A stretch of 64,000 nt of DNA. Source: Octopus vulgaris (lineage: Eukaryota). A program made the position numbers and the translations under genes. Under the pieces are notes generated by a model. It saw only the letters and a program-made list of their open reading frames with translations, had not been told where the DNA came from and ran no database searches. Positions within the stretch are counted from its first letter, which is position 1. Every line of letters starts with the position of its first letter. Shown piece by piece: positions 1 through 63,888 of this stretch. The stretch covers positions 69,440,001 through 69,504,000 of the forward strand of contig OX597823.1 in the NCBI GenBank assembly GCA_951406725.2. Reading direction: 5' to 3'.

Positions 1-1396
1 CAGCACTGCATACGAAACACATCTTTTTACTGCAACATTGTTCTTTCTGCCGTTATACGTATAATGTACGTCGGAGCTTCTTCTTCATATTCTTCTCTTC
101 CTCCTCCTCTTCCCCATTCCCTTCCTCCTTCTCTGTCTCCTTCACCTGAAGCTTCAGACCAACCCTACTTAAGCTGGGCTATGACAAAAGGCATTCGAGG
201 TATGACCAGCATATTCCTTATTTTTCCATATATGTATCTAAGATATTATTCGATTACGTTCTGCTCTTCCAGTTTTTTTCTACAAGGTAGGGTAGACGCT
301 CTTTCGTTAGTTCATTTGGTAGCCATTTTATCTAAGGGGTAATGACATGTCTATCTTTTAGTGTATTTTATATGAGCGAACAACAACTAATATAACAATC
401 GGGCCTTTGTACAGTCACCCCATTTGGCGTTTATATCAAGGCCAACTCTGTTTGAGCACAACTTTAATCAACGACTTTCCATATTAACAATAACCATCCA
501 AACTTTACTCACTCATAGTACACCCTGAATCCTATTGTCCAATGTCTATGAGTAAAAGCAGGTGGCCTTGTAGTTAGGCTGTTTGGACTCAGGATCATAA
601 ATACGTGGGTTAAATTACTAGAGCGGATGACACGATGGGGTCTTTTCTGTTCTTGTCACAGTTTTTTAAATTTTTGAATTAAGTAAAAATTTTCAAATTT
701 GGTATATCGATGTAATTTTTCACGCTGAATCTGATTTTGTTGTTCACTTGTTCCAGAAAACTTGAAGAAAAATGTTATAAAGATTTACAGTTTGGTATTT
801 TTATCTAATCGGAAAATAGTGTTTGGAAGCTGGCATTTTCTACATGATAGCTATCACAAAATGAAAGCAAGACATTAAAACGACGATGCTTTATTAAACA
901 TAATGAAAGCAAATCATAACGACAATGAAAGACGTAAGAAGTTTTGAAGTTCAAATAAGTTTTAATGATTAATATCATGTGAAACGGTTCGAACAGTCAA
1001 GTAAATAATTTAAGAAAGAAAAAATCCTCGTTAAAAAGACACAGTAATGTAAAACAATGTTAAACAGATACAGTAATGTAAAACAAGCGGTCGAACAGGC
1101 ATGTAAACAATTTAAAAAGGAAAAATCCTCAATCAATTTTTTAAAAAATAAATCTTACAAAAAAAAAAAAAAAATTTGTACGTTATAGTATTGTAATAGT
1201 TCAGTTCATGCAAACAAATAATACATTTTTATAGCGAAAATCAGAAATACGAAAGTTCAGAATATAGGTATTCGTCAAAGAAAATAGGTCAACAAGTAGT
1301 GGTTGTAGCAGATTTAAACAGACGACATCTTGGATCGTTACTATAGAAACCAGCACCGATATGTCTGTGGCTTTCCATTAGCTAAAATTACTCAAA

Positions 1397-19717: not shown

Positions 19718-20140
19718 CTAGCCCCGTAAATAGTTGCTGACTCTTAGTTTAGTCAATAGTCTGTTGATAAATATGCTATTATGAGTACGTAAATGAGTAT
19801 AACATTTTGTCTTTTACTTACACTATTTGTCGAATACATTTGTAAGTTGCTTTCTCTCTTCTAAGGAAGAAATTATTTCTTTTTCAGAGAACAAGCATTA
19901 GGATTGAATCAGAGTAGAGTGTACAGGTGAGTCAAGATATGAAAATCATATCTAAAATGACCAAAACTCACTGTACGCCATGGCAGTGCCTGCCAAACTT
20001 TTCAGGAAGTTAGTGTCCCATGGTACACACGTGCACACGCGCGCAGGAACACACACACAAGCACATACGCACACTTATATACATAAAAATATCTCCAAAC
20101 CCGAACGATATACACATACACATACAAATGTACAAATATG

Positions 20141-20184
<44 letters not shown>

Positions 20185-20313
20185 TAAAAAGAATTCCAAC
20201 CTTGTCTGATTTTCACGTTTTATTTACAATCTTATAATGATATATTATAAGATAATATATTATAATTGAATAAAATAAAATGAAATAGTAGAATGTTAAA
20301 TATTCATTCTGAT

Positions 20314-20358
20314 TGAACTAGTACTTTCATGCATTGAATTCTGCAATCTTCGGGTTCA
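20314..20358 (-). ncRNA. Minimal hammerhead ribozyme in the inverted pLTR
   Basis: Reverse complement of 27604-27648. Confidence 0.75.
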
Positions 20359-20852
20359 TGTAGTAGTGTTGACAGTCATGCTTCACAATTTTTGACTGTA
20401 GCAAGATGAGTGATTCTGTGCTATAAATACAGCTGGGTAGGCTCCAGAGTGCTAGGTTTTGCAAACTGTATTCTGACCAATCAGTGTGTAGTATCACTCA
20501 ATTACTTAAGCTGATTGGTTGGTTGAGCTGATTGGTTTAGGCATCACGCTTTGTTGGACAGGTCAAGAGTCCTGTATCTTGACCCTGGCCGAAGCAGCAA
20601 TTGTTGGGTTATTTTTAGAAATGTTGTAAATATCCTTTGTCAGAGATTTTTATATTTTTATATTTCAATTGTCATCATCATCATTGTCAGCACCTTAATT
20701 ATTGTTGCTAGTGGTGATGGTGGTGGCAATAGAACTTTTAACCCTAAATAAGATAATTTTCCTGCTATCTTCGTCTTGATCACCTTTAGTATTGTTGTTG
20801 TTGTTAGTGGTCATGGTCGTAGCAGTGGAAGTAATACCTCTAAGTATTATTA

Positions 20853-23109
20853 TTATTGCTTATTTAGCTTGGGTTCGAATTTATCAATAAAATTCTTTTC
20901 TCTGATTTTCCTCTCGATTTCACTTGGGCTGTGTAATTTGTAGAATGGAAATATTATATATATTTTCCGACCACATGTTGCTAGGTGGTTACTCAAAGGT
21001 ATCTGACGGACCTCTGGGTCTCTAATCTGTTGCCGGTGTACACGTGAGCGTTCTAATAGTGCGTTTCCCGTCTGACCTACATATATTTCTTCACAATTTG
21101 GGCATTTGATGCAGTAAATTAAATTTCTGCTTTTGCAGTTCATATTCGCGTTTGTGAATATTTTCCCGGTTTTTGTGTTTATATATTGACCGGTATGTAT
21201 GAATTGGCATGTGCCACATCGGCTATCATTGCATTTAGATACCGTGAATGTTTGGTCTTTGTTGCTGAGGTCAAATTTTGCCTTTGTTAGTAATGTTTTC
21301 AAGTTTTTAGGCTGTCTTTTACTAAGCACCATAGCTCGATCCTTGATTATGTCTTTTAATTCATTACTTTGGGCAATGATTGGTAGGTTTGCTTTGGCAA
21401 TGTTGAAGATATTCTGGTGACATGGGTTGTGTGTCACTATGAATGGTATGACTTGTTCTTGTTTTCCTCTTCCTTGGGTTGTCCTAAGTTGTTGTATAGG
21501 TATTTTTATAGCCCGCTGTATGCCATTTTCTATAAGTAGAGATGGGTATTTTTGTTTGAGCAAAAATTCTCTTAGTTCTATTAGGCGTTTGTTCCTGATA
21601 TTTGCATCTTCTACAATAGTACAAATTCTTCTGGCTAGGCAGTATGGGATGTTACGTTTTGTATGTGGTGGATGGCACGACTTAAAATTTAGGTATTGAT
21701 GTGTGTCTGTGTGTTTATAGTATATATCTGTGGTGATGGTGGTGTCTTTTTTAATTACCATTATATCCAGGAATGGTAATTTGGTACTACTCATCTCCTT
21801 TGTAAATTTGAGAGATGGGTGTAGGTTGTTCAGGAGGATATTGAACTCTTCCAGAGTATTTAGAGATTCTGTCCAGATTATGAAACAGTCGTCTAGGTAT
21901 CTCTTCCATGCCTTTTCAATATACTTTCTAAATCCAGTGCCATAGTTTACCTCCACCTCTTGGTAGAGTTGTTCTTCTAAGTATCCCATTACAGAGTTGG
22001 CGTAAACGGGAGCAAACCTCGTTCCCATCGCCGTGCCTCTAATTTGGATGTAATTCTTTCCATTGAAGAAGAATGTGTTATTTTCTAGAATAAGTTTGAC
22101 TGTGTCTAATATAAATGGCACTGTGAATCTGCTGGGAATCACTTCTCTATGTTTTTCTAACCAGTATTTAGTCGCCTTTATTCCTAAATCGTGTGGAATA
22201 TTGGTGTAGAGGCTTACCACATCAAAACTTAGTAAAACTGAATTTGTTTCTGTTGTTTTGGGAAGATGGGACAGGAAGTCGATGTCATCCCTGATGAAAC
22301 TTGGTATGTAAGTACATAGTGGTTTCAAAACAATGTCAATAAAATTGCTTAGACGGTGTGTAGGGCATGCTGGACCAGCTATAATAGGTCTAAGTTTTAG
22401 GTCTTTTGGATGTAATAATTTTATGTACTCACTTTCTTGTTCTTTTACTGCCTGTTGAATGTTTTTTGATTTGTGTATTTTTGGTAAGCCGTAGAAGTTG
22501 CTGGGTTTTGGTTCAAAATTGGTGATGTAGTCTTTTTCATTATCCGTAAGTGAGTTGTGGTGTGTTGAAATCAGGTTGTTGATCTTTTTCATGATGTGGT
22601 GGTCTATATTTGCGGGTATTTCACAATAGAAGGTTGTATCCTTCAGTTGGTCTTCAACCAAATCCTTATAGTATTCGGTATCCATAATAACAATTGCACC
22701 ACCTTTATCTGCTTGTTTAATTATTATTGTTTGATCGTTTTGTATACGTTTACATGCAGACATCTCTGATTTGCTAATGTTTGGCCTAACATTGGTATTG
22801 CGTCTAAGGGGAAATTTAGACAGGATATCAATGTATTGGTCAAGGTAGTTATTTCTTCCTTTTGGTGGGGTGAAATTTGATTTATTCCTTACTAGGGATT
22901 CATCAATCTCATTACTTTTGTTAGCGAAGAATTCTACAAGTCGTAATTTTCGACAGAATTTTTGGATATCCTCCTTTAATTCTTGGTGGTTGGCTGTTGG
23001 TGTAGGTGTGAATTTCAGTCCTTTTGACAGAAGTTGGATTTCATCATTGTCAAGATCTCTTTTTGATAAATTAATTATTTTAGGATCTATACGTTCAGTT
23101 GTTTGGGGT
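20853..23109 (-). CDS. Inverted, 5'-truncated copy of PLE-1 ORF2 (ATG-defined part 22763-20853)
   Basis: Protein identical to 25199-27109. The arm mirrors 24853-27786 and lacks ORF1 and the slippery site. Confidence 0.9.
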
Positions 23110-23155
23110 CAAGATACAGGACTCTTGACCTGTCCAACAAAGCGTGATGCCTAAA

Positions 23156-23269
23156 CCAATCAGCTCAACCAACCAATCAGCTTAAGTAATTGAGTGATAC
23201 TACACACTGATTGGTCAGAATACAGTTTGCAAAACCTAGCACTCTGGAGCCTACCCAGCTGTATTTATA
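23156..23269 (+). promoter_or_regulatory. Putative Pol II promoter in the pLTR: three CCAAT boxes plus a TATA-like element
   Basis: CCAATCAG at 23156 and 23173, CTGATTGG at 23207, TATTTATA at 23262-23269. Confidence 0.5.
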
Positions 23270-23332
23270 GCACAGAATCACTCATCTTGCTACAGTCAAA
23301 AATTGTGAAGCATGACTGTCAACACTACTACA

Positions 23333-23377
23333 TGAACCCGAAGATTGCAGAATTCAATGCATGAAAGTACTAGTTCA
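23333..23377 (+). ncRNA. Minimal type I hammerhead ribozyme (U4C core variant) in the 5' pLTR
   Basis: TGAAC-CCGAAGA-T-TGCA(gaattcaa)TGCA-T-GAAA-GTAC-TA-GTTCA. Helix I TGAAC/GTTCA, helix II TGCA/TGCA, palindromic helix III AGTACT. Predicted cleavage after CUA (23372). Confidence 0.75.
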
Positions 23378-23582
23378 ATCAGAATGAATATTTAACATTC
23401 TACTATTTCATTTTATTTTATTCAATTATAATATATTATCTTATAATATATCATTATAAGATTGTAAATAAAACGTGAAAATCAGACAAGGTTGGAATTC
23501 TTTTTATTAATATATTCTTCTATACACAATCACACACACCCATATATATATATATCTATATTCCTATTGTGTATATGCCAAC

Positions 23583-24875
23583 ATGTCTGGAAAGCAACAA
23601 ACAAAATTAACAGAATCCGAAAGAATTCTAATGGAAATTTCATCGAAATTATCAACACTCATCACGATGATTGACACACAATCCTCTATTTTAAAGGAAA
23701 TAGAAAAACAGTCTACAGACGGAAAACTTGGAAATGAACACATAAACTCTGAAATTAAGAATTTAGCTGAAATGATACCAACAATTATAAAATCTACAAG
23801 AGAAAGCCTACCACAACCTCCTTGGATGTCAGAAATAAACGAAAGAAATCTGGAAAAAGAGGCACACCGAAAAAGAGAAGAGATACAGAAGACATGGAAA
23901 AAACTCCTTAACATAAGAAAACAAAACTTCTGGAAGGCATATAAATGCGAAAAATATGCTGAAATACATTCGAAATGGATATCTTTAGCGGCACCCATAC
24001 TTCCTCGGAAGTACCTAATTAAAGAAATTGCAGGAGAACCAGAGGAAGAAACTAAACTTCGATGGGACCTTAGTTTGATAAAATTCAGGACCGACATCTC
24101 CATTACCCTGTCTAAACAATCCCGCTACAAAGCCAAATACGAAGCTATCGATGATCAAATCAGAGATGAAATATCCAAACTAACGACCGGCAATATAGCA
24201 GAAAAAATGCGAGAACTATGGATCAGAGATATCTCAAAAGAAGAAAGCAGATCAAGAAAGTTTTGGCAGCGGAAACAATTATTTCTCGACAAATATGCTA
24301 CAAATTACGGTAAAGACACCAGAACTCCGAGAAATAGCATTAAAAGTGGACAACCTCACCAACGCAACATACACCAGAACACGTGGCAACATGAACACCC
24401 GTTTCACCACGAATCGAAGACGAACTACGGTAAGAACTCTTCCCATTTTGTATGCAAACACCCTAATGCACACAACATGAACAAAAAGCACAAACAAAAT
24501 AGATATTGTTTTGAACAGACCATTAGCAGTAGAAATAACAGGAGATCATTTTCAAGACCTCAACAGAGATTACCCACAAGAAACTGGACAAAAAACCGAT
24601 CTAGATCTAGAAGTAAACCCAGATCATTTCTCCAGGTGGTTAAAAACAATGCTAACAAGAAATTGAAAAGTAGCATACATAATACCAAAAACAAGACAGA
24701 AAACATAACGAAACCAAGTAAAGTACCACAACCAAAACGCAAAATTCATCAAGCAAACATCAACAGGAATATAAATCATAACCAGAAAAAAATCCATTTT
24801 TTTACGTCAGGACAACAAACACCGGAGAAAGAAAAAATCCAAGAGGAAACATACCCCAAACAACTGAACGTATAG
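23583..24875 (+). CDS. PLE-1 ORF1, 430 aa: N-terminal predicted coiled coil, conserved helical middle domain, basic/RS-rich low-complexity C-terminus
   Basis: Long uninterrupted ORF starting 28 nt after the 5' pLTR. Clear homology to 34459-35628 (RKxxFW, WI...ILPRK..IK.I..EP, FR..I, ID, W.....KEE..S...W, F..KY). Confidence 0.85.
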   Translation: MSGKQQTKLTESERILMEISSKLSTLITMIDTQSSILKEIEKQSTDGKLGNEHINSEIKNLAEMIPTIIKSTRESLPQPPWMSEINERNLEKEAHRKREEIQKTWKKLLNIRKQNFWKAYKCEKYAEIHSKWISLAAPILPRKYLIKEIAGEPEEETKLRWDLSLIKFRTDISITLSKQSRYKAKYEAIDDQIRDEISKLTTGNIAEKMRELWIRDISKEESRSRKFWQRKQLFLDKYATNYGKDTRTPRNSIKSGQPHQRNIHQNTWQHEHPFHHESKTNYGKNSSHFVCKHPNAHNMNKKHKQNRYCFEQTISSRNNRRSFSRPQQRLPTRNWTKNRSRSRSKPRSFLQVVKNNANKKLKSSIHNTKNKTENITKPSKVPQPKRKIHQANINRNINHNQKKIHFFTSGQQTPEKEKIQEETYPKQLNV

Positions 24876-27109
24876 ATCCTAAAATAATTAATTTATCAAA
24901 AAGAGATCTTGACAATGATGAAATCCAACTTCTGTCAAAAGGACTGAAATTCACACCTACACCAACAGCCAACCACCAAGAATTAAAGGAGGATATCCAA
25001 AAATTCTGTCGAAAATTACGACTTGTAGAATTCTTCGCTAACAAAAGTAATGAGATTGATGAATCCCTAGTAAGGAATAAATCAAATTTCACCCCACCAA
25101 AAGGAAGAAATAACTACCTTGACCAATACATTGATATCCTGTCTAAATTTCCCCTTAGACGCAATACCAATGTTAGGCCAAACATTAGCAAATCAGAGAT
25201 GTCTGCATGTAAACGTATACAAAACGATCAAACAATAATAATTAAACAAGCAGATAAAGGTGGTGCAATTGTTATTATGGATACCGAATACTATAAGGAT
25301 TTGGTTGAAGACCAACTGAAGGATACAACCTTCTATTGTGAAATACCCGCAAATATAGACCACCACATCATGAAAAAGATCAACAACCTGATTTCAACAC
25401 ACCACAACTCACTTACGGATAATGAAAAAGACTACATCACCAATTTTGAACCAAAACCCAGCAACTTCTACGGCTTACCAAAAATACACAAATCAAAAAA
25501 CATTCAACAGGCAGTAAAAGAACAAGAAAGTGAGTACATAAAATTATTACATCCAAAAGACCTAAAACTTAGACCTATTATAGCTGGTCCAGCATGCCCT
25601 ACACACCGTCTAAGCAATTTTATTGACATTGTTTTGAAACCACTATGTACTTACATACCAAGTTTCATCAGGGATGACATCGACTTCCTGTCCCATCTTC
25701 CCAAAACAACAGAAACAAATTCAGTTTTGCTAAGTTTTGATGTGGTAAGCCTCTACACCAATATTCCACACGATTTAGGAATAAAGGCGACTAAATACTG
25801 GTTAGAAAAACATAGAGAAGTGATTCCCAGCAGATTCACAGTGCCATTTATATTAGACACAGTCAAACTTATTCTAGAAAATAACACATTCTTCTTCAAT
25901 GGAAAGAATTACATCCAAATTAGAGGCACGGCGATGGGAACGAGGTTTGCTCCCGTTTACGCCAACTCTGTAATGGGATACTTAGAAGAACAACTCTACC
26001 AAGAGGTGGAGGTAAACTATGGCACTGGATTTAGAAAGTATATTGAAAAGGCATGGAAGAGATACCTAGACGACTGTTTCATAATCTGGACAGAATCTCT
26101 AAATACTCTGGAAGAGTTCAATATCCTCCTGAACAACCTACACCCATCTCTCAAATTTACAAAGGAGATGAGTAGTACCAAATTACCATTCCTGGATATA
26201 ATGGTAATTAAAAAAGACACCACCATCACCACAGATATATACTATAAACACACAGACACACATCAATACCTAAATTTTAAGTCGTGCCATCCACCACATA
26301 CAAAACGTAACATCCCATACTGCCTAGCCAGAAGAATTTGTACTATTGTAGAAGATGCAAATATCAGGAACAAACGCCTAATAGAACTAAGAGAATTTTT
26401 GCTCAAACAAAAATACCCATCTCTACTTATAGAAAATGGCATACAGCGGGCTATAAAAATACCTATACAACAACTTAGGACAACCCAAGGAAGAGGAAAA
26501 CAAGAACAAGTCATACCATTCATAGTGACACACAACCCATGTCACCAGAATATCTTCAACATTGCCAAAGCAAACCTACCAATCATTGCCCAAAGTAATG
26601 AATTAAAAGACATAATCAAGGATCGAGCTATGGTGCTTAGTAAAAGACAGCCTAAAAACTTGAAAACATTACTAACAAAGGCAAAATTTGACCTCAGCAA
26701 CAAAGACCAAACATTCACGGTATCTAAATGCAATGATAGCCGATGTGGCACATGCCAATTCATACATACCGGTCAATATATAAACACAAAAACCGGGAAA
26801 ATATTCACAAACGCGAATATGAACTGCAAAAGCAGAAATTTAATTTACTGCATCAAATGCCCAAATTGTGAAGAAATATATGTAGGTCAGACGGGAAACG
26901 CACTATTAGAACGCTCACGTGTACACCGGCAACAGATTAGAGACCCAGAGGTCCGTCAGATACCTTTGAGTAACCACCTAGCAACATGTGGTCGGAAAAT
27001 ATATATAATATTTCCATTCTACAAATTACACAGCCCAAGTGAAATCGAGAGGAAAATCAGAGAAAAGAATTTTATTGATAAATTCGAACCCAAGCTAAAT
27101 AAGCAATAA
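24782..27109 (+). CDS. PLE-1 ORF2: reverse transcriptase + Cys linker + GIY-YIG endonuclease; frame open from 24782, first ATG only at 25199
   Basis: PLE N-terminal motifs KIINLS..LLSKGLKFTPTP lie upstream of the ATG. RT motifs ADKGG, SFDVVSLYTNIP, GTAMGTRFAPVYAN, WKRYLDDCF, LPFLDI, YYKHT. Linker CNDSRCGTC. Nuclease NLIYCIKCPNCEEIYVGQTG..R..H. No stops. Confidence 0.95.
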   Translation, partial: PEKNPFFYVRTTNTGERKNPRGNIPQTTERIDPKIINLSKRDLDNDEIQLLSKGLKFTPTPTANHQELKEDIQKFCRKLRLVEFFANKSNEIDESLVRNKSNFTPPKGRNNYLDQYIDILSKFPLRRNTNVRPNISKSEMSACKRIQNDQTIIIKQADKGGAIVIMDTEYYKDLVEDQLKDTTFYCEIPANIDHHIMKKINNLISTHHNSLTDNEKDYITNFEPKPSNFYGLPKIHKSKNIQQAVKEQESEYIKLLHPKDLKLRPIIAGPACPTHRLSNFIDIVLKPLCTYIPSFIRDDIDFLSHLPKTTETNSVLLSFDVVSLYTNIPHDLGIKATKYWLEKHREVIPSRFTVPFILDTVKLILENNTFFFNGKNYIQIRGTAMGTRFAPVYANSVMGYLEEQLYQEVEVNYGTGFRKYIEKAWKRYLDDCFIIWTESLNTLEEFNILLNNLHPSLKFTKEMSSTKLPFLDIMVIKKDTTITTDIYYKHTDTHQYLNFKSCHPPHTKRNIPYCLARRICTIVEDANIRNKRLIELREFLLKQKYPSLLIENGIQRAIKIPIQQLRTTQGRGKQEQVIPFIVTHNPCHQNIFNIAKANLPIIAQSNELKDIIKDRAMVLSKRQPKNLKTLLTKAKFDLSNKDQTFTVSKCNDSRCGTCQFIHTGQYINTKTGKIFTNANMNCKSRNLIYCIKCPNCEEIYVGQTGNALLERSRVHRQQIRDPEVRQIPLSNHLATCGRKIYIIFPFYKLHSPSEIERKIREKNFIDKFEPKLNKQ
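24797..24803 (+). promoter_or_regulatory. Candidate -1 frameshift slippery heptamer U_UUU_UUU (PLE-1)
   Basis: Correctly phased in ORF1 (CAT TTT TTT), inside the ORF1/ORF2 overlap 24782-24875. ORF2 is in the -1 frame. Confidence 0.65.
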
Positions 27110-27376
27110 TAATAATACTTAGAGGTATTACTTCCACTGCTACGACCATGACCACTAACAACAACAACAATACTAAAGGTGATCAAGACGAAGATAGCAG
27201 GAAAATTATCTTATTTAGGGTTAAAAGTTCTATTGCCACCACCATCACCACTAGCAACAATAATTAAGGTGCTGACAATGATGATGATGACAATTGAAAT
27301 ATAAAAATATAAAAATCTCGGACAAAGGATATTTACAACATTTCTAAAAATAACCCAACAATTGCTGCTTCGGCCA

Positions 27377-27810
27377 GGGTCAAGATACAGGACTCTTGAC
27401 CTGTCCAACAAAGCGTGATGCCTAAACCAATCAGCTCAACCAACCAATCAGCTTAAGTAATTGAGTGATACTACACACTGATTGGTCAGAATACAGTTTG
27501 CAAAACCTAGCACTCTGGAGCCTACCCAGCTGTATTTATAGCACAGAATCACTCATCTTGCTACAGTCAAAAATTGTGAAGCATGACTGTCAACACTACT
27601 ACATGAACCCGAAGATTGCAGAATTCAATGCATGAAAGTACTAGTTCAATCAGAATGAATATTTAACATTCTACTATTTCATTTTATTTTATTCAATTAT
27701 AATATATTATCTTATAATATATCATTATAAGATTGTAAATAAAACGTGAAAATCAGACAAGGTTGGAATTCTTTTTATTAATATATTCTTCTATACACAA
27801 TCACACACAC

Positions 27811-27826
<16 letters not shown>
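27377..27826 (+). repeat. PLE-1 3' pseudo-LTR plus tail running into the (TA)n target
   Basis: Matches 23106-23555. Its reverse complement, without the tail, is at 20176-20585. Confidence 0.92.
27604..27648 (+). ncRNA. Minimal hammerhead ribozyme in the 3' pLTR
   Basis: Identical to 23333-23377. Confidence 0.75.
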
Positions 27827-27854
<28 letters not shown>

Positions 27855-29089: not shown

Positions 29090-29870
29090 ATATTGCGTTA
29101 TCCCATAAATAACGCGGTTTTTTCAATTGTATGAACTAAAAGTCGGATGGGGACAGGATAAACTACCTGCATCAACTTGCTATAAAAGCAGTTAGTGATT
29201 TTACCTTGTACTTATTCTTACAAGTTTTCAAGAGTGCAGTTCCATCGTAACAGTTTTTTTCTTTTCAAAGCTATAACGGAAGTGGCAAAGGAGCATATTT
29301 GGCATATTTTGCTTTATGAGTTCAATAAATGCAACAACGCAACGAAAAGTGCGAGTAATATTTATGCAGTATATGGAGATCGGACAATAAGCGTAAGGCG
29401 GTTCCAGAAATTCCGAGCCGGAAACTACAGCCTAGAAGACGAGCCTCAGCCTGGATGATCAGTAGAACTCGACGAGAACGTCCTGCAAAAACTGGTGGAA
29501 GAAAATCCCATTGTAACTGCTGAGGAACTAGCAGAGAGGCTTCGATTTGGTAATTCAGCCATTCATCGATACCTGCGTGTCAGCAGATTGGGTTAATGGG
29601 TTCCTCACAAACTTTCCGAGTCTAATCGCGTGCAGAGTGTAAATGTGAGCTTTTCTTTGCAGTCACGTCACACGAATGAACCTTTTTTGGACCCTTAAGT
29701 GACTGGTGACGAGAAATAAGTTCTCTATGAAAATGTCAAGTACCGAAGACAGTGTGTAGGGAAAGGAGAAACACCGGCCCCTCTGGTTAAAGAAAGTGTT
29801 CACTCACGTAAGATTTTGTTATCTGTTTAATCCACTTTGAATTTTTAAACCTAAATCAAACAATAACGAA

Positions 29871-33347: not shown

Positions 33348-34212
33348 CAGGGTGCGAGGGGTAAATTGTCGCCATTTTATACATTTGATTTCGCGTATGC
33401 ACATTGCTTGCTTTTGATTTTGTTAACTACACAGTATAGTAGAGTCGGTTGGGCACCGTTACTGAGACAAACAGCACCATGATGCAATTCACTCTGCCAG
33501 AAATTTGGAAACGACATGATGCACTGCTTGGCATTCGCACCGGAAGCTCCAATACGGGCATTTCAGAGTGCTTGGCTGTCAATCTAAGGACACGTACCGA
33601 GAATGAGAAAAATCAAACATACTGTTAACACCATGGTGTTTGGAGTGATCACTTGTGATGGCTGCATTCATCTCCCCACTCGACCTCACACTCAACACGA
33701 AAGGCCTACATCAAGTGCTTGGATGAGGTCAAGTGGGCGACACTGGGTCAATATGGTACCTGCTGGAAGACCATATGTATGGTAACAGGACTCTGCACCA
33801 TGTCACAAGTAAGGGAACCCAGTCATGGCTGTCAGACAACTTCTGCGATCACATCACCCCAAACATCTGACCACCTAACTCCCCAGACTGCAACCACTTT
33901 GATTATTATGTGTGGTGCGCAGTTGAGCGACAGACCAACAAAACTCCTTGTAACATCAAAGATGAACTGAAGACTAGGATTATGGCGGCATTCGCCAATT
34001 TAAACAAGGAGACCGTCCAGAAGAATTGCATGAGATTCCGAAGTTGTCTAGAGGCTGTGGTTGAAGCAAATGGCAATTTTATTGAATGAATTTACTCTTT
34101 ACTCTTTCAAGATATTTCTATTGAATTTTGGTAAATATATCTCTTAAAATGAAATATTAGTGTTATTTTCATTTTTGCGTAGTTGAGGCGACCGTTTATT
34201 TACCGCACCCAG
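33348..34212 (+). mobile_element. Internally deleted Tc1/mariner-superfamily element, maT/DD37D-like
   Basis: Imperfect TIRs CAGGGTGCG..TAAATTGTCGCC / GGCGAC..TTTA..CGCACCCAG. Motifs MVFGVIT, VW*QDSAPCH, *PPNSPDCNHFDYYVW. Confidence 0.8.
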
Positions 34213-34375: not shown

Positions 34376-34447
34376 TATATAAAAAATAGTAAAGAGTGAA
34401 AAAACGACAGAAGGCTTAAATATTAAAAAATATATATATTTGCGTCA
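34376..34447 (-). repeat. Inverted copy of the PLE-2 3' terminus (72 bp)
   Basis: Reverse complement of 38134-38205 with one mismatch. Confidence 0.9.
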
Positions 34448-34458
34448 CAACACTAAAT

Positions 34459-35628
34459 GTGTTATACACAACACTAAATTCAATTTTCATCAACAAATCT
34501 GAAAATAATACACACGCACCAAATGAAACACAGCAGGACATCATACGCACCCAAATTAACCCAGCAAAAAGAAAAATAGGAAACATTTGGAATACTATCC
34601 TGCACAACAGAAAACTCGCCTTCTGGAACATGATAAAAAATTCCAACAAAGCAGATATTTACGAGGGATGGATAAACTCAACACCAATTATCCTCCCACG
34701 CAAATTCCAGATAAAATTAATTCCTAACGAGCCTGACGGACAGAGATCTATTAGGGAAAAGTCAGCTCTGTTCAATTTTAGATCAGAAATAGAGCTTCTA
34801 AGACTCAGGGCCTCCACAAATGAGGAAAAATTTAAAAGCATAGACGAGGAGATGCACAATATAATACTGAAACATACCGAGGGACAACCCCTCGAAAATA
34901 CATTAGATCATTGGAAGGAAACCTGTGAAAAAGAAGAGAGAAATTCTCTCCTACGCTGGGAGAAAAACATGGACTTCTTCCAAAAATATAGTGAAACTTT
35001 CAAAAATGAATTGGGTACAAATAATCCCTTCCTTAAGAAAATTACAATAAATAAAAAAGAAAAACCAAACAACCCACGAACAACCCCCAACTATCCTCCA
35101 TACACTAAAAACAGAAATCACCCACAACCAACCTTTGCAAACCACGCAAGACCTAACAGGGAACTAGCTGACAGAGGACACGTCTATGAAATAAATTACA
35201 CCAAAAACAGAACACACCAACAACATCCTAATACCAGACCCAACCACCATACAGCACAAAACGACACTAGAATAAGAAATACACCACACACAAATCGCTA
35301 CTACCCCATGAACCAAAATTACTGGTCCCCAATAAACACAAGACAAACGCAAAAAAACACTATGTCAAGCAACATCCCACATATAAGCAGTTCGAAACAA
35401 AAATATTTCCCATACAGAAATTTTACACACACGACAAACAATAACAACCATAGATTCACACACACACACAACGATCGGGGGCAACAATACCACCACTCCC
35501 CCGACCAAATACCACACAACCTCACAGACAACTCATACAAACAAAATTACACCCAACATTTTTTAGCCAGGGACCAGGGACACCAGGACACAGGCTGGAA
35601 CCTAGTAATAAGGAAAAACCGAAGATAA
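34459..35628 (+). CDS. PLE-2 ORF1 (N-terminally truncated, 389 aa open)
   Basis: Homologous to the PLE-1 ORF1 middle domain. N/H/Q/T/P-rich C-terminus. The predicted start is GTG next to the truncation junction at 34448. Confidence 0.8.
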   Translation: MLYTTLNSIFINKSENNTHAPNETQQDIIRTQINPAKRKIGNIWNTILHNRKLAFWNMIKNSNKADIYEGWINSTPIILPRKFQIKLIPNEPDGQRSIREKSALFNFRSEIELLRLRASTNEEKFKSIDEEMHNIILKHTEGQPLENTLDHWKETCEKEERNSLLRWEKNMDFFQKYSETFKNELGTNNPFLKKITINKKEKPNNPRTTPNYPPYTKNRNHPQPTFANHARPNRELADRGHVYEINYTKNRTHQQHPNTRPNHHTAQNDTRIRNTPHTNRYYPMNQNYWSPINTRQTQKNTMSSNIPHISSSKQKYFPYRNFTHTTNNNNHRFTHTHNDRGQQYHHSPDQIPHNLTDNSYKQNYTQHFLARDQGHQDTGWNLVIRKNRR

Positions 35629-37894
35629 TCAATCTTTCAACCAAACCTCTTTCTAACATAAAAATTGACATCCTCTCAAAAGGGCTCAAGTTTACACCAA
35701 CTCCACGCAGAGCCAACCTAAATGAAATCAAAGATAATATAACAGAATTTTGCAGAAAATTAAGACTAGCAGAAGCATCAACCAGTTTCAATACTGAAGA
35801 TGAATCACTAGTCAAGAACAAAAGGGAACACATCCCACACAGAGGAAGAAATAAAGATCTTGACGAATTCTGTAACCACATTGAGAACTTCCCCTACCAT
35901 ACTATACATAAACAGAAAGCTAACTCAAATTTTAACACTACACAATGGAAAGAACTGATAGAACTTCAAAATGATGAGGATATAACCATTAAGGAAGCAG
36001 ACAAGGGAAATGCAGTTGTAATAATGGATACATCATACTACAGAAATCTTGTAATTTCCTTGCTTGATGACGACCTACATTATGAAAAAATTACCAACTA
36101 CACACCACAAAAAATAATGGAAACTCTATCTTCACTAATTAAAACCCATGAAAAGGAACTAACAACCAAAGAGATTGACTTCCTAACAAACTTTAAATGC
36201 AAACCTAGCCTTTTCTATGGTCTGCCAAAAATCCATAAAAGTCAAATTATAAATGAAACCATTAAAAAATCACCAAAGACATACATACACACACCTAACC
36301 CGGGGGACCTAAAACTACGACCCATTGTAGCTGGCCCAACCTGTGAAACACACAGACTAAGTCTACTTATGGACATCCTCCTGAAACCCTTCCTTAAACA
36401 TATCGATAGCCACATCAGAGATGACTTAGATATATTAAACCACCTTCCAAAAAAAGCCAAGGAAGAAACAATCCTGGTTTCATTTGATGTAGTCAACTTG
36501 TATACCAGTATACCTCATAATTATGGACTGGAGGCAATACAGTTCTGGTTAGACTAATTTCCGGAGGAAATACCAAAAGGATCAGTAAAGAATTCATTAC
36601 TAAATCAATTGAATTCATCCTACACAATAACCACTTCATGTTTGACAATACATTTTACCGTCAAAAATCCGGAATTGCTATGGGTACAAGGGCAGCACCA
36701 GTCATTGCGAACTTAACAATGGGATACATGGAAATAATCATTTACCAGGAATCTTTATCAATCTTTGGAAATCCCCTCTCTCAATACATAAAAGAGAACT
36801 GGAAACGATTCTTAGACGATTGTTTTATTCTCTGGAATGAAAACACAGATAAACTCCTAAAATTTAAAAACCTATTGAACAGCATAAACCCAAATATACA
36901 GTTCACAATGGAATACAACCAAAAGGAGCTCCCGTTCTTGGATATACTAATTAAAAAAATTAACCTTAAAATAGAAACAGACATTTTCTACAAAGCCACA
37001 GACGCCAAACAATACCTTCTCTTTAATTCATGCCACCCAAGACACACTAAAACAAACATCCCCTTCGACCTTGCAAGAAGGATATGCACAATAGTGTCAG
37101 AACAAAATACCAGGAACTTTAGACTGCAAGAACTCAAAAACACCCTAATTGACAGACATTACCCAGCTCAACTCATAGAGGATGGGATCAGACGTGCAAC
37201 AGAAATCAACATAGAAACTTTAAGAAAAGTTCAACACAACAACACACCTTCCCCGAAAATACTACCTTACATATCTACATACAACCCCAGAAACAAAGAA
37301 GCCTTCACCATCATCACCCAGAATTTACCAATACTTCATAAAAACCCCAAATAAAAGGAAATTCTAAACATACACCAAATCATTAAAAGCTACAAACAGC
37401 CTAAATCACTTAAAAAGATTCTCACAAAGGCAAAATTGTCTTCTGAAATTACGGATGCAAAAGTAAAAAAATGTGGCAGATCGAACTGTGCAACATGTCC
37501 TAACCTACTAGAAGGATCAGGATTCCTCTTTAAAGAGGGACAGAAATTCAAGATCAAATCTAACTTTACTTGTGCCTCTGAAAACATAATTTATGTCATA
37601 AAATGCTCGGGCTGCCACCAAGACTACGTGCGTTCCACGGGACTATCACTCAGACGTAGATGCACACTGCATCGACAACAGATTGCATTCCCAGAATATA
37701 AAATGATACCTTTTAGTGAGCACATTGAGAAATGCGCAAAGCAACTACTACCACAATTTTTAATCTTTCCATTTTACCAATGTGCTTTCGGATCATCAAC
37801 ACAAATTAGACTAAACAAGGAAACATTCTTCATTGAAAAGTACAAGCCCAGACTCAACCATCCGAACATACTGATACAGAGAAATTCACATTAA
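35454..37894 (+). pseudogene. PLE-2 ORF2 RT-GIY-YIG, disrupted
   Basis: KIINLS..ILSKGLKFTPTP, ADKGN, SFDVVNLYTSIP, GIAMGTRAAP, WKRFLDDCF, CGRSNCATC, IIYVIKCSGC. Stops at 36555-36557 and 37352-37354, a frameshift near 36578, and YVGxT changed to YVRST. Confidence 0.92.
35559..35565 (+). promoter_or_regulatory. Candidate -1 frameshift slippery heptamer U_UUU_UUA (PLE-2)
   Basis: CAT TTT TTA in the ORF1 frame. The -1 frame is open and ATG-free from here to 36024 and encodes the conserved PLE N-terminus. Same heptamer as the HIV-1 gag-pol site. Confidence 0.7.
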
Positions 37895-38025: not shown

Positions 38026-38064
38026 AAGAAATTTGAAAAGCTAAATGCGAAACCGGTCTTTCTT
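38026..38064 (+). ncRNA. Degenerate minimal hammerhead in the PLE-2 3' region
   Basis: AAGAAA-t-TTGAAAA-GC(taaat)GC-GAAA-CCGG-TC-TTTCTT. Helix I AAGAAA/TTTCTT, palindrome ACCGGT, GUC triplet. Core has two substitutions versus CUGANGA. Confidence 0.6.
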
Positions 38065-63100: not shown

Positions 63101-63888
63101 ATAACTTAGAATAACTTAGAAAGGTTTTGGCCAGTATTGGCCCAGGCCATGTCTAACTTAATAGCACCACCTGGTGAAGTCTTTCAGTTCAGGATTTGGG
63201 CACCAAGGCCCATTCGAGCAGAGAGTTATTGTTTGCGGAGACATATCCGGGTGTGGGTGGTTTGTCCGGTACTGTTTGAAGGAATTTGTCCAAAGACTTC
63301 TTGAATTTTGTGTGGTCAGTTTCTTTTTTGACGTGCCCTGGTGTAATGTTGAAGAGAGCAGGTCCAATTGAGGTGAAATAGTTGTGCCGTATTGTCGTTA
63401 TGTGATGCGATTTAGATTTTTGTTGTGGACGGATGGCACATGGTCCAAGCCTTGGATGCATTTTGAAGGTGATGCCAACATCATTCGGACAGTGCTGGTG
63501 GAATATTTTCCACATCATACAGATAATGTAGCGTTCACGGCGTCGTTGGAGTGAATACAATTTCAGCTTCTCTAGTCTACCCCAGTAGTCAAGGTCTGAC
63601 ATGCCATCTATCTTTTTTGTGATTGACCTTTGGGGAGCTTCAATTCTCATAATATTTTGTTTTGTGTAGGGAGACCACAGTGGACAGCAGTATTCAAGGT
63701 GGGGTCGGGCAAAAGTGGAGAAGAGAAGGATAATAGCATGGGAATCTCTCGACTGGAAGGTTCTGAGAATCCAGGAACACATTCTGCGGGCCATGTCAAC
63801 TTTGCTGCTTATATGTGTAGCCCAGCTTATGTTGTTGTCCACTGTTACTCCCAGGTCTCTGATGTTGTTGGATGCCATGAGAATTTCT
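63101..63888 (-). mobile_element. 5'-truncated CR1-group LINE 3' end; RT C-terminal region open at 63878-63189
   Basis: RDLGVTVDNNISW..HI, RPHLEYCCPLWSPY, RLEKLKLYSLQRRRER. Short 3' UTR ending in two copies of TCTAAGTTAT. (TA)n on both sides. Confidence 0.88.

Follow-up and report, generated by a model that had tools for sequence, protein, structure and literature searches.

A Penelope-like element (PLE) in the genome of Octopus vulgaris, here called PLE-1, carries an open reading frame (ORF1) upstream of the frame for its reverse transcriptase (RT) and GIY-YIG endonuclease (EN). A second element nearby, PLE-2, has a related one. What is this upstream protein, and how is the enzyme behind it expressed? 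The window that we analyzed is the whole stretch of 64,000 nucleotides from contig OX597823.1 (positions 69,440,001 to 69,504,000 of the forward strand), and the host genome is AT-rich and rich in microsatellites. We conclude that ORF1 represents a real, widespread, and unannotated protein family, joined to RT-EN at a −1 slippery site that is conserved. PLE-1 is best explained as a two-ORF member of a distinct lineage of endonuclease-bearing (EN+) Penelope retrotransposons, which we call Neptune-like because our RT tree contained no named references.

Two Penelope-like elements in the window

PLE-1 consists, in order, of an inverted 5'-truncated copy, a pseudo-LTR (pLTR), ORF1, RT-GIY-YIG, and a second pLTR, with (TA)n at both ends (Table 1). 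Pseudo-LTRs and an inverted insertion are present, as in EN+ PLEs. Pfam recognized RVT_1 (E 3e-6) and GIY-YIG (E 3e-5) in positions 24782-27106. The two pLTRs are identical across 300 nt, and the element looks intact and young. The inverted copy begins at the equivalent of position 24853, about 50 nt past the slippery heptamer described below. It therefore holds nearly all of RT-EN and has no ORF1, heptamer, or start codon.

By eye, the 5' pLTR contains a hammerhead-like minimal motif, which both the 3' pLTR and the inverted copy repeat. It had no Rfam match, and the window copy has one core change. Position 23339 is T in contigs of three runs, which gives the usual CUGANGA core. Contig depth peaks over 23333-23377, as if short hammerhead-bearing copies far outnumbered full elements.

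PLE-2 belongs to another family than PLE-1. It has no ATG before the conserved ORF1 domain and its RT is broken, so it is a decayed copy. A degenerate hammerhead-like motif (AAGAAA stem, GAAA, palindromic CCGG) was seen by eye at its 3' end (38026-38064). Also by eye, the window contains decayed fragments of a mariner-like transposase (29250-29800 and 33400-34100) and a 232-aa C-terminal fragment of a LINE-type reverse transcriptase (63189-63887, minus strand). Runs X15 and X19, which carry the labels of other organisms (B and D), contained near-identical copies of 23571-25300, with 1-6 differences per kb, which can be read as either close species or recent transfer.

Table 1. Features of the two elements, and slippery heptamers at two further loci
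Feature	Position	Strand	Remarks
Inverted 5'-truncated PLE-1 copy (RT-EN and pLTR)	20109..23109	−	99% complementary to 24853-27853
5' pseudo-LTR	23106..23560 (end approximate)	+	repeated from 27377
Hammerhead-like minimal motif in pLTR	23333..23377	+	by eye; core CCGAAGA ... GAAA, palindromic GTAC
PLE-1 ORF1	23583..24875	+	430 aa, ATG start, intact
N-terminal heptad helix	23613..23807	+	ORF1 aa 11-75, predicted coiled coil
Three-helix conserved domain	23874..24326	+	ORF1 aa 98-248, with P-R-K loop
Basic low-complexity tail	24327..24794	+	ORF1 aa 249-404
PLE-1 RT, CxxxxCxxC linker, GIY-YIG endonuclease	24782..27109	+	−1 frame
PLE-1 slippery heptamer	24797..24803	+	T TTT TTT, phased; predicted −1 frameshift site
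3' pseudo-LTR	27377..27830 (end approximate)	+	ends in (TA)n
PLE-2 ORF1	34420..35628	+	stop to stop; conserved domain 34567-35019
PLE-2 RT-EN	35454..37894	+	starts in −1 frame; three pieces
PLE-2 slippery heptamer	35559..35565	+	T TTT TTA
L001 slippery heptamer	718-724		T TTT TTA
L003 slippery heptamer	1202-1208		T TTT TTG

The ORF1 family and its predicted fold

The first-pass annotation had placed the PLE-1 protein at 23583..24800. Its start codon was right, and the frame ends at 24875 instead. The motifs that it quoted are all present in the translations. It had also aligned a domain of about 135 aa by eye, without gaps, between the two elements. That domain is real and longer, covering 151 columns (PLE-1 residues 98-248, PLE-2 residues 50-200) with 46 identities (30%), no gaps, and an E value of 2e-21. 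The heptad-like helix noted ahead of it in PLE-1 agrees with a predicted helix at residues 11-75. Its best a/d phase is 63% hydrophobic, whereas four of the remaining six phases reach 5-21%. Coiled-coil structures are also among the matches of the ORF1 family profile (best E 4.9e-05). The tail of 156 aa in PLE-1 is indeed basic (K+R 36 versus D+E 4) and includes RSRSRS.

We searched residues 90-247 of ORF1 against 1.84 billion representatives. This returned 435 clusters (50% identity) at E<=0.001 and 141 at E<=1e-10, and the best 150 of the 435 were examined. Typical members have a median of 90 aa before the domain and a median of 146 aa after it, and the tail is net positive in 83 of 85 homologues. 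Nine positions, including W105, R112, P141, K143, E152, D190, and W213, are kept in at least 90% of 122 aligned sequences. The only named homologues came from a Mytilus edulis gene model and from a bivalve gill-symbiont assembly, the latter likely host DNA.

Pfam contained no family for PLE-1 ORF1. Neither an RRM nor an esterase was matched in Pfam by the ORF1 proteins of PLE-1 and PLE-2 or by any of the 122 sequences in the alignment (A2), and none of 154 ORF1 homologues has a CCHC knuckle, in line with the absences noted at first pass. Scattered Pfam matches in A2 (13 families, each in 1 of the 122 members) were rejected as single-member. The earlier suggestion of a conserved, undescribed ORF1 family holds. 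The protein is not accounted for by any Pfam family, by a relative of solved structure, or by an Atlas cluster.

Where its genomic context can be checked, a check that the annotation had proposed, the family lies upstream of a PLE RT in 5 of 5 cases, namely four loci in DNA and a single protein in which the two are fused in frame. The fusion, P0039, carries internal deletions and is the only one of the 154 homologues with an RT. A search of longer proteins (957-2730 aa) with the ORF1 alignment found none among 5924 candidates, which is weak evidence. Locus scans based on ORF1 gave one locus in metagenomes and none in viral contigs or genome contigs. The RT-based scan found no locus in viral contigs; in genome contigs it found 20, among which only L003 had the ORF1 domain (E 8e-50); the others were mostly of other lineages or had no upstream DNA. 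L003 was thus recovered via its RT and not via ORF1. The PLE RTs of L002-L021 lie in contigs of bacterial genome bins, where they most likely represent DNA of animal hosts. One contig carries two copies (L005 and L006), and another set, L007, L008, L020, and L021, marks four places on a single contig.

By the NG86 method, dN of ORF1 was 0.47 between PLE-1 and L001 and 0.71 between PLE-1 and PLE-2; dS was saturated in both pairs, so no dN/dS ratio can be given. Third codon positions vary most in both comparisons (72 versus 46 and 37 for PLE-1/L001; 101 versus 71 and 65 for PLE-1/PLE-2), a pattern that fits purifying selection.

An AlphaFold2 model of ORF1 (122 sequences, pLDDT 92.5) has helices at residues 11-75, 80-100, 102-134, 154-200, and 203-241. 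The confident part (residues 1-257) contains helices only, and the remainder is low-complexity. ORF1 is predicted, then, to be all helical, with a coiled-coil-like helix followed by a three-helix domain. Foldseek with this model gave no match at E<=0.001 in the PDB and viral sets, and the ESM Atlas had a best score of 0.76 and no usable match thereafter. VIA gave best Z scores of 9.6 (rmsd 5.2, 146 aligned) and 9.4 (rmsd 6.6, 121 aligned). We rejected these top rows as relatives, since they are generic helical bundles and lie below the tool's mark for such folds. With regard to a capsid (CA) fold, too, the searches listed generic helical bundles alone. Weak rows for the duck hepatitis B capsid, to which the basic tail had drawn attention, were also rejected (E 1.3 and 0.21, TM 0.16-0.17). 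The fold searches thus show the absence of a known match, which is not proof of a new fold. A trimer prediction for ORF1 scored 0.02 and carries no weight either way.

The junction of ORF1 and RT

In all four DNA loci that hold the domain (PLE-1, PLE-2, L001, and L003), RT-GIY-YIG is in the −1 frame relative to ORF1, and a slippery heptamer phased for such a shift lies in the overlap (Table 1). The ORF1 stop comes 19-28 codons past the heptamer, and the RT frame opens 1-35 codons before it. None of the four has a Met between the upstream stop of the RT frame and the conserved N-terminal INLS-like RT motif. In PLE-1, the first Met of the RT frame is aa 140, downstream of the conserved IINLS (aa 35-39), so the RT has no start codon of its own. 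Three of the four loci are decayed (one ORF1 stop each in L001 and L003; the broken RT in PLE-2). The first-pass annotation had no mention of this junction.

Homologous proteins from the search extend the comparison. Among the 154 homologues (clusters at 50% identity), 89 were at least 300 aa long, and 73 of the 89 have F[L/F] within the last 50 residues (70 FL and 3 FF). Two upstream control windows had it in 9 and 6 of the 89. Its median position is 18 residues before the C-terminus. The residue before it was H (30), S (12), P (8), N (7), R (7), Y (5), D (2), G (1), or L (1). Residues with no U-ending codon (Q, K, E, M, and W) occurred there in 0 of 73, versus a background of 24% (binomial p 2e-9, which is too strong because the homologues are related). 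An x-F-[L/F] in which x can always be encoded by NNU is what NNU UUU UUN, a heptamer phased for a −1 shift, would leave as its shadow in a protein. The motif is missing from the last 50 residues of 16 of the 89 long homologues, several of them truncated or extended. Five of the 16 (P0067, P0094, P0111, P0123, and P0131) end with [N/D/Y]-F-[R/H] 11-12 residues before the stop, perhaps a different slippery heptamer. In a subfamily made up of L003 (1202-1268), P0083, P0095, P0099, P0107, P0110, and P0120, FL[FYW]HxQGA is kept after the slip site; such conservation is unusual for the overlap and may reflect RNA structure or a constraint from the RT frame.

We also examined RNA folding downstream of the heptamers, since a programmed −1 signal typically includes a stimulatory hairpin or pseudoknot 5-9 nt beyond the slip site. 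For the 72 nt past three of them, folding z-scores were −0.7 to −1.0. A downstream pseudoknot or hairpin beat shuffled sequences in L001 (10 of 300 shuffles did as well) and was borderline in PLE-1 (25 of 300); those of PLE-2 and L003 were no better than shuffles. One low-depth contig of another organism had two changes within the heptamer.

Could the break in frame instead be decay, or a homopolymer sequencing error, in one long ORF? Indels are common in T-runs, ORF1 and RT are fused in frame in P0039, and poly-A frameshifts detach domains in Naiads (PMC8557442). However, the same −1 offset is found in four families whose RTs are only 45-55% identical, the junction in PLE-1 is unchanged in long contigs from other runs, 153 of the 154 homologues have no RT, and PLE-1 is otherwise intact with pLTRs identical over 300 nt. 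Because the offset is common to four families and the one homologue fused to an RT is a deleted copy, we regard this reading as largely refuted and its residual probability as very slight.

The main rival to a frameshift is a splice acceptor. The T-run would then serve a 3' splice site as its polypyrimidine tract. ORF1 would be encoded by RNA left unspliced, and spliced RNA would join an upstream AUG exon to RT-EN and remove most of ORF1. The first AG past the heptamer ends at +1, +1, +7, or +13, a single phase in all four loci (7 nt in PLE-1), although the AG of L003, 13 nt off, is part of a weak AAG. After FL, at least 47 of 73 homologues have G, E, or D, whose codons start with G, and 31 of 73 have a G at +4. 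PLEs are known to keep spliceosomal introns (PMC8557442). However, splicing needs neither an ORF1 that is open to the T-run in one fixed phase nor a stop a median of 18 residues farther on, and it does not require RT at −1, which is where all four loci have it. Contigs of two runs guessed to be RNA (records 8 and 29) cross the junction unspliced, and no joint was seen at the site; contigs show what is present, not what is absent. We judge a splice acceptor to be distinctly improbable. Taken together, the frames, the heptamers, and their protein shadow point to a programmed −1 ribosomal frameshift at the ORF1/RT junction. The weak downstream folding, the 16 long homologues that lack the motif, the contig with an altered heptamer, and the decayed state of three loci weigh against it.

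Lineage, proposed mechanism, and known systems

An IQ-TREE quick tree of 36 RT rows placed the four two-ORF RTs and L002 on one long branch (SH-aLRT 100), apart from the long single-ORF proteins. L002 has no upstream DNA, the single-ORF proteins were picked for length (>945 aa), one of 37 rows was dropped, and P0199, P0206, P0208, and L005-L021 were not included. The closest RT among the proteins of >945 aa is 38% identical, and the two-ORF RTs are 45-55% identical to each other. In PLE-1, the RT-EN linker has a CX2-5CxxC finger (CNDSRCGTC) and a CxxC lies between GIY and YIG (LIYCIKCPNC); PLE-2, L001, and L003 have similar motifs. PMC8557442 gives the CX2-5CxxC finger as a Neptune and Nematis trait. 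By eye, the linker spacing is closer to the Neptune than to the Nematis rows of its supplement.

The single-ORF relatives start with an H..FL..C....P.G domain. A model of this domain (P0179 residues 1-138, pLDDT 92.1) has helices at 5-32, 54-99, and 104-131 and a three-residue turn after an invariant proline. The corresponding ORF1 helices are 102-134, 154-200, and 203-241, with a matching turn after P141. This layout was compared at the level of secondary structure. The first-pass annotation had named a confident match to the N-terminal region of ordinary single-ORF Neptune proteins as a refutation of its reading, and this condition is partly touched: the predicted helix layout is equal, though the profile match is not significant (0.1-0.3% probability). 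hhalign gave the same register twice, once against full-length proteins (0.34% with E 0.17, and 0.13%); 6 of 100 block shuffles scored as well, and global mode failed. Hydrophobicity-profile offsets between the two were not decisive. The single-ORF domain model had no Foldseek PDB match at E<=0.001, and the generic three-helix entries that it shares with ORF1 include 8eja, 9clb, and 4oyd. PMC11167929 describes the N-terminus of Anolis Poseidon as a putative nucleic-acid-binding domain, with a dimer predicted via an extended helix. We consider a common origin of the two domains to be about as likely as not. On this weaker reading, the three-helix domain would have diverged from the N-terminal domain that is in frame with RT in ordinary PLEs.

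These observations suggest a model of expression and assembly. By analogy with gag-pol and L-A-type recoding, most ribosomes would stop at 24875 and release free 430-aa ORF1, and a few would slip back one base at U UUU UUN to make an ORF1-RT-EN fusion of about 1175 aa. The ratio of free protein to fusion would set many RNA-binding subunits per enzyme in a retrotransposition particle. By analogy with gag-pol and LINE ORF1, ORF1 would self-associate via its helices, bind RNA via its basic tail, and draw the enzyme into the same particle, and it likely coats or chaperones the element RNA. We think it probable that the −1 shift yields much free ORF1 and little ORF1-RT-EN; ORF1 would then be self-associating and RNA-binding, and the enzyme would be co-packaged.

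The frameshift could also be real without free ORF1 being a packaging protein. ORF1 would then be the ordinary N-terminal dimerization or RNA-binding domain of a PLE, needed only in the fusion, and the shift would lower the dose of RT and nuclease. ORF1 and the single-ORF N-terminal domain share their predicted helix layout and proline-loop register, and single-ORF PLEs transpose without a separate ORF1. However, homology between the two domains is itself unproven. The two-ORF family also adds a median of 90 aa at the N-terminus and a long basic tail with a median of 146 aa, and its domain has more invariant aromatic positions than the single-ORF domain. These additions suit a role for abundant free ORF1, and we think a pure dose effect unlikely.

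Is any of this already described? In the parts of PMC8557442, PMC6431247, PMC11167929, PMC4209133, and PMC6515669 that we saw, EN+ PLEs are single-ORF and two-ORF PLEs lack EN. In Craig et al. 2021 (PMC8557442), the legend of Fig. 1 describes an ORF1 set off by a frameshift with a pseudoknot and does not name the clade; it may apply to Neptune as well. The searched text of its supplement did not mention such a Neptune ORF1. PMC5408684 places an esterase in some Neptune-like PLEs of fish and molluscs, and the parts seen of PMC3846280 and PMC9004415 had nothing further on ORF1. In the text of these papers, neither the ORF1 family nor a −1 site in any EN+ PLE is described, although frameshifted Neptune ORF1s may well have been reported in other sources.

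The textbook EN+ PLE has one ORF. The 435-cluster family, with its conserved recoding site, offers experiments a defined protein and a switch of only seven bases. PLE-1, seemingly intact and young, is a ready test case. The finding bears on how PLEs build a ribonucleoprotein and keep intron-containing RNA, and would account for such elements being annotated as RT-only or broken. The family may also show the origin of ORF1/Gag-like proteins.

PLE-1 shares the GIY-YIG RT, linker finger, and pseudo-LTRs of Neptune EN+ PLEs. However, canonical EN+ PLEs are described with a single ORF, whereas the PLE-1 lineage encodes its N-terminal part separately and in a different frame (4 of 4 loci). Some Neptune-like PLEs have an esterase, and PLE-1 ORF1 has none. 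Other single-ORF PLEs (Poseidon; P0174-P0207) resemble ORF1 in a helix, a proline loop with a three-residue turn, a helix of 46-47 residues, a third helix, a basic tail, and an NLS-like RT start. Their domain is in frame with RT and reads H..FL..C, whereas that of ORF1 reads A..Y..W, and the profiles have no significant match.

Athena elements are similar in having a coiled-coil ORF1 joined by a frameshift to a PLE RT. We take the frameshifted ORF1 of the published legend to be this coiled-coil ORF1 of rotifer Athena/Terminon elements. Athena has no endonuclease and is telomeric, whereas PLE-1 has GIY-YIG and (TA)n flanks. A pseudoknot marks the frameshift in that legend (PMC8557442), whereas only L001 among the candidate junctions here clearly beats shuffles.

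The annotation had likened ORF1, as a putative oligomerizing and RNA-binding or condensate-forming chaperone, to LINE-1 ORF1p or Gag, and here its reading, which we find partly supported overall, divides. The layout and −1 slippery site are indeed gag-like, and the model has no beta strand and so does not have the build of LINE-1 ORF1p. LINE-1 ORF1p and PLE-1 ORF1 are both basic, have an N-terminal coiled coil (predicted here), and lie upstream of an RT-endonuclease likely to use target-primed reverse transcription. However, LINE-1 ORF1p has an RRM plus an alpha/beta C-terminal domain, neither of which is present in the all-helical model of PLE-1 ORF1, and LINE-1 ORFs are separated by a spacer, whereas PLE-1 ORFs overlap at the slippery site. 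With gag-pol, PLE-1 shares a basic structural-type protein upstream, a polymerase at −1, and the same class of heptamer; the HIV-1 frameshift site is U UUU UUA. Unlike gag-pol, PLE-1 has no zinc knuckle, protease, or integrase and no clear match to a capsid fold, and its RT is of another class. A CCHC knuckle is not universal among Gag proteins. It is conceivable, though we hold it only tentatively, that an undescribed clade of EN+ PLEs (the sister group of telomerase) independently reached the gag-pol design, with the ancestral N-terminal helical domain of the PLE polyprotein freed by a −1 shift to become an abundant coiled-coil RNA-packaging protein of a new family that perhaps forms particles. 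If true, one could see here how the N-terminus of an RT gave rise to a Gag/ORF1-like protein.
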